DNA from: an uncultured Gammaproteobacteria bacterium
Lineage (GTDB): Bacteria > Patescibacteriota > Patescibacteriia > UBA9934
Reading direction: 5' to 3'
DNA length: 64,000 bases
Assembly: GCA_964344145.1 (NCBI GenBank)
Contig: CAYFME010000008.1
Location: forward strand, 1,913-65,912
Shown here: piece after piece, positions 14,604 to 17,795 of the stretch
Layout: every line of letters starts with the position of its first letter
How positions within the stretch are numbered: position 1 is the first letter of the stretch
Notes under the pieces: generated by a model
What the model was told of the DNA's origin: nothing
Seen by the model: only the letters and a program-made list of their open reading frames with translations
Databases searched by the model: none
Position numbers and translations under genes: made by a program

Positions 14604-15227
14604 TTGTTTTGTATGCAAAGAATGATCCCTTTGTTTTTGATGGCGCTTTTGGTTGTTGGAGCTGGCTGCAGCGAACCTCAGGCGAATGACGATACGCTCG
14701 ATGCGTTGACTGAGCTTGGGACGGACATCGAAGAGATCGCCGATGAGGAGGATGAAGAGGAAGAGGGGGCGGAAGACGATGAGGAGGCGGATGAGGCCGA
14801 AGATGATGATCAAGTAGCAGAATCATTGCCAGTCGATGATGATGCTGACGACACAGACGTTGGCGAGGAGCCCGAGCTTGAGTCTGAGGAAGATGACGAT
14901 GCGGCCGAGCAAGAAGCGCAGGATCTTCCAGAAGAAGACGATGACGAAGAGAAGGACGAGTCGCTTTATGTCTCCATGGAGTCGGGAAATTTTTTCTTCA
15001 GTCCAAGCTCCATCGCCGCAGAGCCTGGTCAGACCGTTGTTATCACCATTGAGCAGAACGCTGGAACGCACACGCTTGTGATCGATGAGATTGGCTACAA
15101 GTCCGGCGTGAGTATTGGCGATGTTCTTACATTCACCGCACCAACCGATCCAGGATCATATGCCTACTACTGCGACGTTGGATCACATCGTGCACTTGGC
15201 ATGGAAGGGACGTTGATTGTGCAATAG
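14604..15227 (+). CDS. Cupredoxin (plastocyanin/azurin-like blue copper) lipoprotein with ~100-aa poly-acidic linker
   Basis: Lipobox LLVVGAGC; C-terminal type-1 copper ligand pattern YYCDVGSHRALGMEG (C..H....M); the linker is a D/E-rich run. Confidence 0.7.
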   Translation: MFCMQRMIPLFLMALLVVGAGCSEPQANDDTLDALTELGTDIEEIADEEDEEEEGAEDDEEADEAEDDDQVAESLPVDDDADDTDVGEEPELESEEDDDAAEQEAQDLPEEDDDEEKDESLYVSMESGNFFFSPSSIAAEPGQTVVITIEQNAGTHTLVIDEIGYKSGVSIGDVLTFTAPTDPGSYAYYCDVGSHRALGMEGTLIVQ

Positions 15228-15272
15228 CGTTTCAAAAAACGGGCTACAGGGTCCGTTTTTGAATTCTGTAGG

Positions 15273-15301
15273 TTGACAAAACCGCCAATTTATGCTATAT
15301 T
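15273..15301 (+). promoter_or_regulatory. Sigma70-like promoter (TTGACA-N17-TATATT) upstream of the DGR target gene
   Basis: Exact TTGACA at 15273-78, a 17-nt spacer and TATATT at 15296-301; follows a cupredoxin-gene terminator hairpin (15234-15260). Confidence 0.6.
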
Positions 15302-15446
15302 CACTGCCTGTTCCTTGTGATTTTTGGCTTTCTTGTTGTCTATTTTTCTAGGTAGACGGCAAGAAGGCCGGAAACAGATAGGTCTTCCCCTTTGCCGTGT
15401 TGGCGAGGGGTACGGCTTTCCCGAAAAGGGGAGGCAAGGATACAAC

Positions 15447-15923
15447 ATGGACACGCTGCTTTCCGCGGCCCACCTGCGTCGTGAGCTGGGCGAGGAGCTC
15501 TTCAAGGCTCTGGTGAGCTCTGACAACACCGGCAAGGTGCGCACGTTCGCCCAGAGCCTCGTCAACGCCGCCAGCGACCGGCTCCCCACCGAGCTGACCC
15601 TCGGCGATCGCACCTACGAGATCCTCGGCTTCCTCAAGCCTGGCGAGACCTCGGTCAAGGGTGACGTCATGGTCCAGCGCGCCAAGGAGATGAACGCCCA
15701 CCTCGGCAAGGAAGACGGCCAGTGGTTCCTGGACCACCAGGACGACATCCCTGAGAGTCTGCGCGGCAAGGTCGCCTTCGTCTTCACCGACTGGCGTTAC
15801 CCCGACGCCTCGCGCGACGTCTACTACGTCTTCTGGCACGACGCTTCCCGTCGCTGGTTCAGGCACTGGCACCACCTCCCCTCCCTGTGGCTTGACCTCG
15901 ACCGTCTTGTGCGTCGCAAGTAG
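15447..15923 (+). CDS. DGR variable (target) protein, 158 aa, variable repeat at extreme C-terminus
   Basis: ATG 15447 preceded by AAGGGGAGG RBS; 62% GC; last 43 codons form the VR matching the downstream TR; no signal peptide seen. Confidence 0.8.
   Translation: MDTLLSAAHLRRELGEELFKALVSSDNTGKVRTFAQSLVNAASDRLPTELTLGDRTYEILGFLKPGETSVKGDVMVQRAKEMNAHLGKEDGQWFLDHQDDIPESLRGKVAFVFTDWRYPDASRDVYYVFWHDASRRWFRHWHHLPSLWLDLDRLVRRK
15792..15920 (+). repeat. DGR variable repeat (VR), 129 bp
   Basis: Aligns gap-free to 16267-16395 with 15 mismatches; every mismatch position is an A in the other (TR) copy. Confidence 0.85.
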
Positions 15924-15984
15924 GCTCTTGGGTCCTGGGGTTCTTGGCACCTGTCTTGGCCCTCGCTCCCTTGGTCCTCTCCGT

Positions 15985-16029
15985 GGCCCCGCATCTTGCT
16001 TGCAAGGTGCGGGGCTTCGACGTTTTTTT
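15985..16029 (+). terminator. GC-rich hairpin plus T7 run downstream of the target gene (terminator and/or DGR VR-flanking stem-loop)
   Basis: GGCCCCGCA-tcttgcttgcaagg-TGCGGGGC followed by cttcgacgTTTTTTT. Confidence 0.6.
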
Positions 16030-16266
16030 ATGCTAAATTTACTTCGGACGGTAAACTTGCAAGGCTCGCGGCCATGGCTTCGAGCGGTTGAAATCCGGAC
16101 GCTGTGACACGCCGGAATATATCAGGCTACGGCTCGGTATAGAGTGCTGTCGCAGCCCCCCAAATGAATATACTTGGTGCGATGTGCTGGTGAGATCACT
16201 TCTCCAAATACGATTCAGCCCAGAGAAGATCGATGGGTGGTGGTGTAGATGGCGCATGGCATACAT

Positions 16267-16395
16267 TGGCGTAACCCCGACGCCTCGCGCGACGTCTACT
16301 ACGTCTACTGGCACGACGATTCCCGTCGCTGGATCAGGAACTGGAACAACCTCCACAACCAGTGGAATGACAACGACCGTCTTGTGCGTCGCAAG
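16267..16395 (+). repeat. DGR template repeat (TR), 129 bp
   Basis: Intergenic copy of the VR. It holds about 30 adenines, 15 of which differ in the VR. In the VR frame it encodes WRNPDASRDVYYVYWHDDSRRWIRNWNNLHNQWNDNDRLVRRK, with the adenines concentrated in AAC/AAT codons. The in-frame TAA where VR has TAC confirms it is non-coding. Confidence 0.85.
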
Positions 16396-16406
16396 TCTGT
16401 TCATTG

Positions 16407-16436
16407 CAAACACTCCCGCTGATTCGGGAGTGTTTG
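16407..16436. other. Perfect 12-bp stem-loop immediately 3' of the TR and abutting the avd stop codon
   Basis: CAAACACTCCCG-ctgatt-CGGGAGTGTTTG. Confidence 0.6.
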
Positions 16437-16437
16437 G

Positions 16438-16758
16438 TTATCTCGCGTGCTTCATCCAGCCACCGAGCATTTTTCCTATCTCCGCTAGTTGTTGAGAGAG
16501 TCGTGCGAATGCCTTGTGATCTACGAGCTTCATCTCCCAGGCGAGCTGCAGGAAGAATTTGAGCGCATCAAATTTCGCGGCTGCCTTCTCAAGAATTGAT
16601 CGCTTATCATGTTTGCTCGAGAATGAAGCCAGTAGGATGAGCTCAATCGTTTCCGTAAATAGGGAATCTATTTTTACTCCAATGGTGTAACGGGAAAGCC
16701 GTGGTAGGTTGGACAACGTTCCATGCCAACATTTATATGCATCGCTGAGTTTATGCAA
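16438..16758 (-). CDS. avd: DGR accessory variability determinant (Avd; four-helix-bundle / 23S-rRNA-IVS protein family)
   Basis: 106 aa; AYKCWHG...FDALKFFLQLAWEMKL...LAEIGKMLGGWM resembles Bordetella bAvd (ATKCYDQ...LAMLRFWLRFLAG...AEVGRILGSWI); TTG start at 16758; on the opposite strand to the TR and RT. Confidence 0.75.
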   Translation of the reverse strand: MHKLSDAYKCWHGTLSNLPRLSRYTIGVKIDSLFTETIELILLASFSSKHDKRSILEKAAAKFDALKFFLQLAWEMKLVDHKAFARLSQQLAEIGKMLGGWMKHAR

Positions 16759-16850
16759 AATCGTAACATCACCTCGGAGATTATCGGGGGGGGGGTCGCA
16801 AAAGAGGTCTGTTTTCGCATACGCTCGAGGAGATTGTTTCGTTTGATAAT

Positions 16851-17795
16851 GTGTTACTTGCCTGGTCGGAGTTTGTCAAAGGCAAACGATCGAAGCAGGA
16901 TGTGCAGGTCTTTTCCAGAGCGTTGATCGACAATATCGATGTGTTGCATTGGGAGTTAGCATCAGGATTGTATCGTCATGGCGGGTATCAACATTTTGTT
17001 ATTCATGATCCCAAGCGTCGGGATATTCATAAGGCCTCTGTCCGCGATCGTTTAGTGCATCACTGTGTACATAGAATGCTCTATCCCTATTTTGATCGTC
17101 GATTTATCGCAGATAGTTTTTCGTGCCGAACAGACAAAGGCACGCACCGAGCAATGGATCGCTTCCGTTCCATGGCCAACAAGGTGAGTCACAATCATAC
17201 GAGGACGTGCTGGGTACTGAAGATGGATATTCGTAAGTTTTTCGCGAGCATCAACCAAAACACATTGCTCCGTCAGCTTGACGGTTTTATTGTTGATACA
17301 CGGATTGTTTATTTGTTGAGAGAGATTATTTTCAGCTTTCATACAGTGCCCGGCTTTGGGCTCCCTCTTGGCAATCTCACATCACAGCTTTTCGTAAATG
17401 TGTACATGAACGAGTTCGATCAGTTCGTGAAACATGCGTTGGGTATCAAGTTCTATATTCGTTATGCGGATGACTTTGTAATCCTTTCGCGCGATCGTGA
17501 GCACCTGAATGAATTGATTCCCGAGATCGATGCGTTTTTGTTCGAAAGATTGCTCTTGCAACTTCATCCGGATAAGACGTTCATCAAGACGCTTGCATCC
17601 GGAGTGGATTTTTTGGGATGGGTTCATTTCCCTGATCATCGAGTCTTACGCCGCTCAAGCCGTCATCGCATGTTTCGCAAGTTGCGGGGGGATCCACGAG
17701 AGGAGGTTTATCAGTCGTATAGGGGTCTGTTAGCCCATGGTAATGGGGGAAAACTTCAGAGAAAGTTACTGGATGATTATTGGATGTTATCGTGA
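16851..17795 (+). CDS. DGR-type reverse transcriptase; annotated from first in-frame GTG but conserved N-terminus continues upstream to 16767
   Basis: RT motifs 1-7 include CRTDKGTHRAM, the DGR-diagnostic LPLGNLTSQLFVNVY (SQ in place of QG) and IRYADDFVILS (YADD box). It closely parallels Bordetella phage bRT. 42% GC. Confidence 0.9.
   Translation: MLLAWSEFVKGKRSKQDVQVFSRALIDNIDVLHWELASGLYRHGGYQHFVIHDPKRRDIHKASVRDRLVHHCVHRMLYPYFDRRFIADSFSCRTDKGTHRAMDRFRSMANKVSHNHTRTCWVLKMDIRKFFASINQNTLLRQLDGFIVDTRIVYLLREIIFSFHTVPGFGLPLGNLTSQLFVNVYMNEFDQFVKHALGIKFYIRYADDFVILSRDREHLNELIPEIDAFLFERLLLQLHPDKTFIKTLASGVDFLGWVHFPDHRVLRRSSRHRMFRKLRGDPREEVYQSYRGLLAHGNGGKLQRKLLDDYWMLS

Follow-up and report, generated by a model that had tools for sequence, protein, structure and literature searches.

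How does a cell make a reverse transcriptase (RT) whose reading frame offers no start codon? The question is raised by a diversity-generating retroelement (DGR) in a stretch of 64,000 nucleotides (nt) from an uncultured member of the Patescibacteriota (contig CAYFME010000008.1 of assembly GCA_964344145.1, positions 1,913 to 65,912), here called the window. The window holds a complete DGR of the Patescibacteria type, consisting of a target gene with a variable repeat (VR), a template repeat (TR), the accessory gene avd on the opposite strand and the RT gene. A run of ten guanines (G10) is located at the junction of avd and RT, and an upstream ATG runs into this tract out of frame with the RT. 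Such tracts are conserved at the junction across the clade of related DGRs, an upstream open reading frame (ORF) is selectively retained where the RT has no start of its own, and related lineages carry tracts of different length. On balance, the tract is probably a slipped-strand switch on RT synthesis, possibly acting by slippage on RNA as well, that would be OFF in the window. The features at the junction are:

16438..16758, minus strand: avd accessory gene, divergent from the RT (Pfam PF22296 bAvd, E=5.9e-14)
16753..16785, plus strand: leader ORF, candidate true N-terminus of the RT (MQNRNITSEII...), with an alternative in-frame ATG at 16723
16786..16795, no strand: G10/C10 simple-sequence tract at the avd-RT junction, the proposed switch element
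16797..17795, plus strand: RT body (RKRGLFSHTLEEIVSFDN...), stop codon at 17793-17795 (Pfam RVT_1, E=6e-24)
16800..16802, plus strand: AAA codon at the position of the initiator Met in the family and in Bordetella bRT
16818..16820, minus strand: ATG of the minus-strand ORF 16674-16820, antisense of the conserved His codon of the RT
16851..16853, plus strand: GTG, chosen as start by public gene callers (P0001, 314 aa, predicted N-terminus MLLAWSEF)

A TAA at 16764-16766 bounds the RT frame (coordinate mod 3 = 0) on its 5' side; from 16767 on the frame is open and reads HHLGDYRGGGRKRGLFSHTLEEIVSFDN. It contains no ATG, GTG or TTG upstream of GTG 16851. The ATG at 16753 and a second in-frame ATG at 16723 belong to a different frame (mod 3 = 1), which reads MQNRNITSEIIGGG into the tract. 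One additional G yields a continuous ORF of 347 amino acids (aa; MQNRNITSEIIGGGGRKRGLFSH...), and the loss of two Gs restores the frame as well. ATG 16753 is thus fused to the RT frame at tract lengths of n = 2 mod 3 (G11, G8) and not at G10. The peptide predicted from an in-frame fusion of leader and RT is MQNRNITSEIIGGGGR, and an interruption of the tract that leaves its length unchanged is denoted GGAGGTGGAGG. An earlier note on this DNA had described the G10 tract, the startless RT frame and the out-of-frame ATG that one extra G would join to it, and all of this was verified in the sequence. No other G or C run in the 64-kb window exceeds 6 nt.

On the other strand, avd starts with a TTG (16758-16756), and an SD-like (Shine-Dalgarno-like) element, GAGGTGAT, can be read from the minus strand 9 nt upstream. 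Read on the opposite strand, its second codon (CAT) is ATG 16753-16755, so that avd and the leader ORF abut head to head, as the earlier note had seen. The leader ORF is codon-aligned antisense to the first avd codons. The minus-strand ORF that begins at ATG 16818..16820 crosses the C-tract as Pro-Pro-Pro and would join the Avd frame, also at n = 2 mod 3. The conserved N-terminal motif of the RT starts directly 3' of the tract. Its likeness to Bordetella bRT, proposed earlier from the translation, is borne out by phmmer, which aligns HTLEEIVSFDNVLLAW of the window to bRT residues 7-22 (8ub7, E=2e-41). The same bRT structure is the best solved relative of the window RT (8ub7, E=1.9e-41 over residues 23-328). 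Directly 3' of the window tract comes TCGCAA, with no subsequent ATG; an AAAGAGG is present there with no start codon after it, and the AAA at 16800 is found six codons before the conserved His (16818-16820).

Public gene calls place the RT start at GTG 16851, the first canonical start in frame. The earlier note had considered that a functional RT with a truncated N-terminus might begin here, in which case the tract would be irrelevant. In the family alignment, however, this start deletes H8, I13 and S15 (each at least 90% conserved) together with the invariant N18. It also deletes the segment aligned to bRT residues 7-17, and the Met of the family and Met-1 of bRT are situated 17 codons further upstream. 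Read in the same way as for avd, the 5-10 nt upstream of the GTG contain no SD-like sequence. With one invariant and three near-invariant residues lost, GTG 16851 is probably not the functional start, and a functional RT truncated to this position is extremely unlikely.

Homologues of the window RT number in the thousands, and those bearing a name are RTs of Patescibacteria. Many homologues (~60% identical, from Patescibacteria where named) carry GGG or GGGG in their N-terminus immediately before a conserved FxHxFEDIIS motif. From reference genomes and metagenomes, 160 related loci were fetched. Among them, 135 are non-redundant and have enough upstream sequence; a repeat was scored within ~35 nt of the codon aligned to window position 16797. 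A simple repeat is found at the avd-RT junction in 125 of the 135 loci (~93%), with phases that differ between loci. It is a run of G7-G14 in 117 of them, and dinucleotide repeats of 12-37 nt replace poly-G in the others:

G7: 2 loci
G8: 15 loci
G9: 43 loci
G10: 34 loci
G11: 15 loci
G12: 5 loci
G13: 2 loci
G14: 1 locus
(GA)n: 5 loci (L012, L057, L079, L082, L173)
(GT)n: 2 loci (L063 and one other)
(CT)n: 1 locus (L008)

Dinucleotide repeats are classic substrates of replication slippage. The (GA)n loci have similar Avd and RT N-termini, judging from the translations, lack an RT start after the repeat and occur in all three phases. No G or C run of 8 nt or more was found outside the junction in 560,594 nt of sequence flanking the related loci. 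In all 108 loci examined, avd and RT diverge from the tract, avd being encoded on the minus strand, and public gene calls agree with this head-to-head arrangement. Eight phage DGRs (RT 27-38% identical) served as outgroups. All eight lack a repeat at the RT start; avd is annotated in six of them and is located there upstream of the RT on the same strand. Judged against these outgroups, the tract together with the divergent avd is a signature of the Patescibacteria clade. In Roux et al. 2021 (PMC8144416), the counterpart of this clade is 'clade 2', which is restricted to Patescibacteria and for which a lower-than-average activity was reported. Such low activity fits a situation in which many loci are OFF.

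The loci with a tract fall into two architectures. In class A (79/125, ~63%), an ATG or GTG in the RT frame follows the tract, which is therefore outside the RT ORF. This start is nearly always found 5-6 codons before the conserved His, where Met-1 of bRT aligns, and 65 of the 79 loci have an in-frame ATG or GTG at anchor 0 or +3. In class B (46/125, ~37%), which includes the window, there is no ATG or GTG between the tract and the conserved N-terminus of the RT. Conserved basic residues (GGG-R-K/R-R...) follow the tract directly in this class and without a start, so translation must begin at or before the tract. Both classes are interspersed on a crude RT tree, with at least 29 changes among 121 taxa, and class B is therefore not a single clade.

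An uninterrupted ATG-initiated ORF that reaches the tract is present in 45 of 45 class B loci, compared with 39 of 76 class A loci (Fisher 4e-10). In a stricter set, class B retains it in 42/42 loci, where 25.5 are expected from virtual antisense-avd positions (P = 2e-12) and 24.1 from shuffles (P = 6e-11). Class A, in contrast, is at background, with 37/69 loci against 35.5 expected from virtual tract positions and 40.4 from shuffles. The upstream GC content is equal in the two classes (0.43), and the contrast in ORF retention persists in every GC stratum. The core idea of the earlier note, namely that tract length links an upstream ATG to a startless RT, is thus supported by the conservation of the tract and by the retained ORFs. 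Support also comes from a close relative of the window and from the length alleles described below.

The phase of the retained ORF relative to the RT is random. Twenty of the 45 class B loci are in frame, 13 need -1/+2, 7 need +1/-2, and 5 are ambiguous. With two phases open in 16 of the loci, chance alone predicts an in-frame share of 45%, which is what is seen. The RT ORFs of out-of-phase loci are intact, with a median of 332 codons, and as conserved as those of in-phase loci. Taken together, the upstream ORF and the long pure repeat are both kept while the phase is random and the RT intact; this combination is the signature of a slippage-dependent gene and does not fit decay. The earlier note had listed several readings of the tract. 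Of these, the slipped-strand switch has gained support, whereas a programmed ribosomal frameshift in a fixed direction misfits, because the phase between ORF and RT is random across loci, and is thereby excluded as a conserved mechanism.

Slippage might also operate without a heritable switch. In such recoding, the DNA tract would be stable, slippage of RNA polymerase or of the ribosome would mix the frames, and a steady low level of RT would result for which the DNA phase is irrelevant. A random phase with intact RT ORFs is expected from recoding, as are a selected upstream ORF, a long pure run and a stable tract length within lineages. Endosymbionts provide a precedent, in that their frameshifted genes are reportedly rescued by transcriptional slippage at poly(A) tracts; Tamas and co-workers are said to have described this in 2008. 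However, established transcriptional slippage in bacteria takes place on A/T runs, whereas the run in the window consists of G, and G/C runs give the most stable RNA-DNA hybrids. The (GA)n sub-clade is hard to explain by slippage of RNA polymerase, and length alleles exist at the DNA level between near-identical strains. Recoding in place of a heritable switch is rated as rather unlikely.

Some further patterns at the junction were considered and rejected as evidence. The same tract length joins both RT and Avd to their upstream starts in 19 of 21 class B loci, as in a coordinated switch. This is a geometric by-product of the codon-aligned antisense arrangement, and it is not independent evidence because avd usually has a TTG or ATG of its own 6-9 nt past the tract. 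A mirror test for avd, i.e. for an upstream ATG-ORF reaching the C-run, does not discriminate (positive in 111/111 loci). A conserved plus-strand peptide (MPQQISLF...), considered as an RT leader, is actually the reverse complement of the conserved ...YxxWH of Avd. Initiation at near-cognate codons was also considered; CTG, ATT, ATA and ACG are not enriched at the consensus Met position. As to the distribution of lengths, G11 is not seen among the 41 class B poly-G loci and is found in 15 of 76 in class A. In class B, lengths of G9 and G10 are the commonest, and G12 forms a small second peak. The lack of G11 in class B may reflect frame constraints, as n = 0 mod 3 is what puts most of these loci in frame, or sampling.

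Tract length differs between close relatives. The architectural twin of the window (L022) shares its gtttATGCAA start abutting avd and the distance of 33 nt from there to the tract, has G12 and then CGC, and is in frame, reading MQRGDIASNRVGGGGRQRVCLEH. The window, by comparison, has G10 and a T before CGC and is one base short. In the P0092 lineage, nine contigs from nine samples have an out-of-frame G9 despite a segregating synonymous single-nucleotide polymorphism. In a locus that is 99.2% identical to them (L186), the tract is G8 and the ATG of MIEIRCGGGIIGKIRLVH is in frame. The P0004 lineage from the Hainich aquifer has G9 (three contigs) and GGTG8 (one contig), both out of frame, and G10 (one contig), which is in frame and gives MQQRQNRRGGGVIGRILFRH. 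The length alleles of these two lineages have identical flanks, and the variation appears at about 0.4-4% divergence. Protein clusters mirror the alleles, with members of 305-353 aa that differ solely at the N-terminus. Three more distant relatives (80-92% nt identity) have G9, G10 and G9 with indels in the flanks and differing frame solutions. The alleles in related lineages are suggestive evidence of variation of the tract. Separately, one Kaiserbacteria metagenome-assembled genome encodes two paralogous DGRs of window architecture with near-identical junctions (L007 and L051, on MFLL01000027 and MFLL01000032). Their tracts are G10 vs G9, and just one of the two paralogues is in frame with its upstream ATG.

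Is the G10 of the window itself an error of sequencing or assembly? The true tract would then be G11 and the RT an ordinary continuous ORF from ATG 16753, a possibility raised in the earlier note. Long runs of G invite errors, and since the three available assemblies share project and platform, all of them could conceivably be miscounted in the same way. All three nevertheless agree on G10, across two assemblers and two runs (MEGAHIT ERR2281800, MEGAHIT ERR2281801, Logan ERR2281800). Moreover, class B loci from independent projects are out of frame in their majority (25/45), and the corrections they need go both ways, as the 13 and 7 loci above indicate. The out-of-frame G9 of the P0092 lineage was likewise reproduced contig by contig. 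A miscounted tract is very unlikely on these grounds, even though contigs frequently break at the tracts.

These breaks were counted in two sets. Contigs end at or in the tract in 8 of 29 cases vs 0.7 expected, and in 11 of 45 vs 1.8 expected (about 6-11x), while the control for downstream ends is at expectation. The loci concerned include L015, L041, L110, L124, L145, L148, L152, L153, L156, L172 and L182, and several begin with a G run. The breaks are consistent with heterogeneity in tract length and also with trouble in sequencing poly-G. Runs of poly-C (up to 51 nt) or N occur next to the junction in L005, L046, L053 and L021, at scaffold gaps in L005 and L021 and at a contig end in L053. 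All of these are probably assembly artefacts provoked by the tract, and the poly-C stretches of L005, L046 and L053 were treated as such, that of L005 adjoining a scaffold gap and that of L053 a contig end.

A number of observations weigh against a switch that depends on tract length. The window's own population shows no length variation in its three assemblies, and a search of JGI metagenome contigs returned no other allele of the window tract. The tract is constant among near-identical contigs of P0092 (G9, nine contigs), P0069 (G9, ten), P0110 (G9, four), P0117 (G10, six) and P0018 (G10, two). Because it is constant in near-identical genomes, any switching must be too slow to alter the consensus between samples. 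Two variant alleles, L185 and L106, come from contigs of 4-5x coverage, one of them with an odd T in the run, and may be errors. Contig breaks at poly-G can arise as a sequencing artefact. In-frame states are not enriched, which fits a switch and fits an irrelevance of the DNA phase equally well. Finally, an ordinary RT start follows the tract in 63% of the related loci, and the tract is kept in 38 of 111 loci in which both genes have canonical starts; the effect on frame in the window could be secondary.

Because this 63% have the tract before a normal RT start, it must have a role that does not depend on frame, too. In a sub-group of loci with exactly 13 nt between tract and ATG, a TAnnnT adjoins the 3' end of the tract in 17 of 22, which leaves 7 nt up to the ATG. 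Measured from a -35-like motif (T[TG]G[ACT][AG]A), total spacers are 15-19 nt, and 16-18 nt in 13 of the 16 loci with the motif. By its match to consensus, this geometry looks like a sigma-70 promoter of a leaderless RT mRNA with the tract as spacer. The -35-like motif is also the antisense of the avd start and hence constrained in its position for another reason, and run length correlates weakly with the non-G part of the putative spacer (rho = -0.37, p = 0.2). Members of the sub-group include L039, L043, L049, L060, L067, L070, L081, L114, L120, L121, L129, L138, L146, L147, L150 and L167, among others. The window is not a member: a consensus scan found no promoter at its tract, and the spacer geometry known from porA and hif fails there.

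Other class A loci have an SD-like AGAGGA or AAAGGA between tract and ATG. Seen from avd, the C-run is located 6-9 nt before the usual start (mostly TTG, reading M-P-V/I-L), where an SD is expected. No ATG, GTG or TTG for avd is found within 30 nt of the tract in 42 of 111 loci. The G-run as SD of the RT was rejected as a general role, with a spacing to the ATG of 4-47 nt (modes 13 and 19) and with other repeat types as substitutes. Some relatives seem to have a hairpin (cttttgc...gcaaaag) 5' of the tract, but this sequence is part of avd, whose N-terminal LPVLQK is encoded there on the minus strand. The common denominator over all architectures and repeat types is the instability of repeat length.

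Alternatively, the tract may be a regulatory or structural element of the avd/RT region that acts independently of its length. The RT of the window would then be null, decaying or initiated in a non-canonical way. The location of the tract outside the RT ORF in class A, the promoter-like geometry in the 17 sub-group loci and the minus-strand start of avd at 6-9 nt from the tract are in line with such an element. So is the VR, which is identical in the contigs of both samples and gives no sign of ongoing diversification, although these are consensus sequences and weak evidence as regards mutagenic activity. It leaves unexplained, however, why all 45 startless loci retain an ATG-ORF into the tract and why out-of-phase RT ORFs are intact. 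The replacement of poly-G by (GA)n, (GT)n and (CT)n argues against a sequence-specific binding site, and the lack of enrichment of near-cognate starts at the consensus Met position speaks against non-canonical initiation. No RNA element emerged either: an Rfam scan of 15200-17200 (E up to 10) gave chance matches only, and folding of 16700-16860 is not better than that of shuffles (z = +1.1). This explanation is regarded as quite unlikely.

In the slipped-strand switch proposed here, the RT of the window, which has lost the usual Met codon after the tract, would be translated from ATG 16753 (or 16723), inside the antisense of avd. The ribosome would read the tract as Gly-Gly-Gly(-Gly) and continue into the conserved N-terminus of the RT. 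G11 or G8 would lead to full-length RT and the observed G10 to a short dead-end peptide, so that the dominant genotype in both samples would be OFF. Slipped-strand mispairing at replication would change the length of the tract and thereby turn the RT on or off in a heritable and reversible manner, and with it the adenine mutagenesis of the target gene. Slippage of RNA polymerase on the tract may add a low leak of in-frame mRNA. That the window population switches, how often it would do so and how this would bear on the activity of the DGR are matters of inference.

A broader proposal, plausible though somewhat short of probable, is that the junction tract is a selected hypermutable master switch throughout the clade, with the architectures as promoter spacer, RT leader or part of the ORF being interchangeable. 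If this is true, the DGR would be stochastically ON in some cells or populations, and a contingency locus would gate a targeted hypermutator, giving two tiers of evolvability. It would account for the low activity measured for the Patescibacteria DGR clade and would place a diversity generator under stochastic heritable control in the most DGR-rich bacterial radiation known. The regulation of DGRs is largely unknown, and unchecked mutagenesis of the target gene is costly. The proposal is testable from public reads, as tract phase should predict VR diversification locus by locus in more than 100 populations. There are practical consequences as well. Public gene calls often misplace the N-terminus of these RTs (314 aa from GTG in the window, 305-353 aa in one lineage), and assembly breaks at the tract can split DGRs between contigs and so keep surveys from finding them.

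The window DGR resembles that of the Bordetella phage BPP-1 in its bRT-like RT, its bAvd-family protein, a TR and VR that differ at TR adenines, and a VR at the 3' end of the target gene. In BPP-1, avd and RT follow each other in this order on one strand, whereas in the window the two genes are divergent and abut head to head. The junction of the window further differs in that it holds a simple-sequence tract, and its RT has no start codon of its own.

Contingency loci with poly-G/C tracts are known from capsule and flagellar-modification genes of Campylobacter jejuni, from pilC, lgtA and siaD of Neisseria, and from outer-membrane protein genes of Helicobacter pylori. Like these, the window has a pure run in the range of ~8-13 G just after a start codon, at which a change of one base would toggle the protein body. 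Length alleles among close relatives may be a further parallel, and out-of-frame alleles are otherwise intact. Here, however, the gated gene encodes a polymerase for targeted mutagenesis and not a surface structure or methyltransferase, and the hosts are environmental Patescibacteria instead of host-adapted pathogens. In addition, the tract is kept at one site across a deeply diverged family (~60% aa identity) and between two divergent overlapping genes. Its consensus length is stable within a lineage, and the switching rate may be much lower.

Phase variation in promoter spacers is known from porA and opc of Neisseria meningitidis, with poly-G/C between -35 and -10, from poly-C in Bordetella fim, and from hifA/hifB of Haemophilus influenzae, where (TA)n is located in overlapping divergent promoters. 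The sub-group of relatives described above is similar in that the tract fills a putative promoter spacer, between divergent genes as in hif. The likeness stops at the window, where the geometry is not found, and the promoters of the sub-group are assigned by consensus alone. Rescue by transcriptional slippage is known for poly(A) in Buchnera and Blochmannia, for Thermus dnaX and for transposases of insertion-sequence elements. As in these cases, intact out-of-frame ORFs are joined here via a long homopolymer, with no visible selection on the DNA phase; the known cases involve A/T runs, whereas the DGR loci have G or, in one sub-clade, (GA)n. A last parallel is the mRNA leader of Helicobacter pylori tlpB, in which a G-repeat of variable length is targeted by the small RNA RepG (PMC8295292). 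In 63% of the relatives, a homopolymer of variable length likewise precedes the RT start; the relevance is by analogy only, and no search was made for a C/U-rich partner RNA. In the literature searched, which did not include Paul et al. 2017, no link of a DGR RT to homopolymers, simple repeats or phase variation was found. DGRs and phase variation by simple repeats are each well known, and a conserved repeat that gates a DGR RT is new to this literature.

The remaining parts of the DGR are located upstream of the junction:

15273..15301, plus strand: putative sigma-70-like promoter preceding the DGR target gene (TTGACA and TATATT at a spacing of 17 nt, with TG), from a consensus scan only
15324..15923, plus strand: DGR target gene, 199 aa, with the VR at its 3' end
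15792..15921, plus strand: VR, a 130-nt direct repeat of the TR
16267..16396, plus strand: TR, which pairs with the VR

TR and VR are 88% identical, and all mismatches (15/15) are at TR adenines. The locus thus combines a DGR-type RT, VR differences limited to TR adenines and an adjacent Avd, each a hallmark of a DGR. The target gene matched no Pfam family. The candidate promoter at 15273..15301 is the only strong promoter-like site on the plus strand within 15200-17100 in the consensus scan. It may drive one long transcript through target gene, TR, the antisense of avd and RT.

A contig from ERR2281800 (L001) differs from the window at four positions in 5.2 kb, namely 15662, 15675, 15693 and 15708 (T>C, C>G, A>G and A>G). 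The differences cluster in the target gene, 84-130 nt upstream of the VR. Two of the four are within one arm of a 20-nt imperfect inverted repeat (15675-15694 / 16529-16548), the other arm of which is inside avd. A short GC-containing hairpin, CTTGTGCGTCGCAAG, is found at the 3' end of the TR (16381-16395), and an identical copy at the 3' end of the VR (15906-15920) sits immediately before the stop codon of the target gene. This hairpin may be an element of the DGR hairpin/IMH (initiation of mutagenic homing) type.

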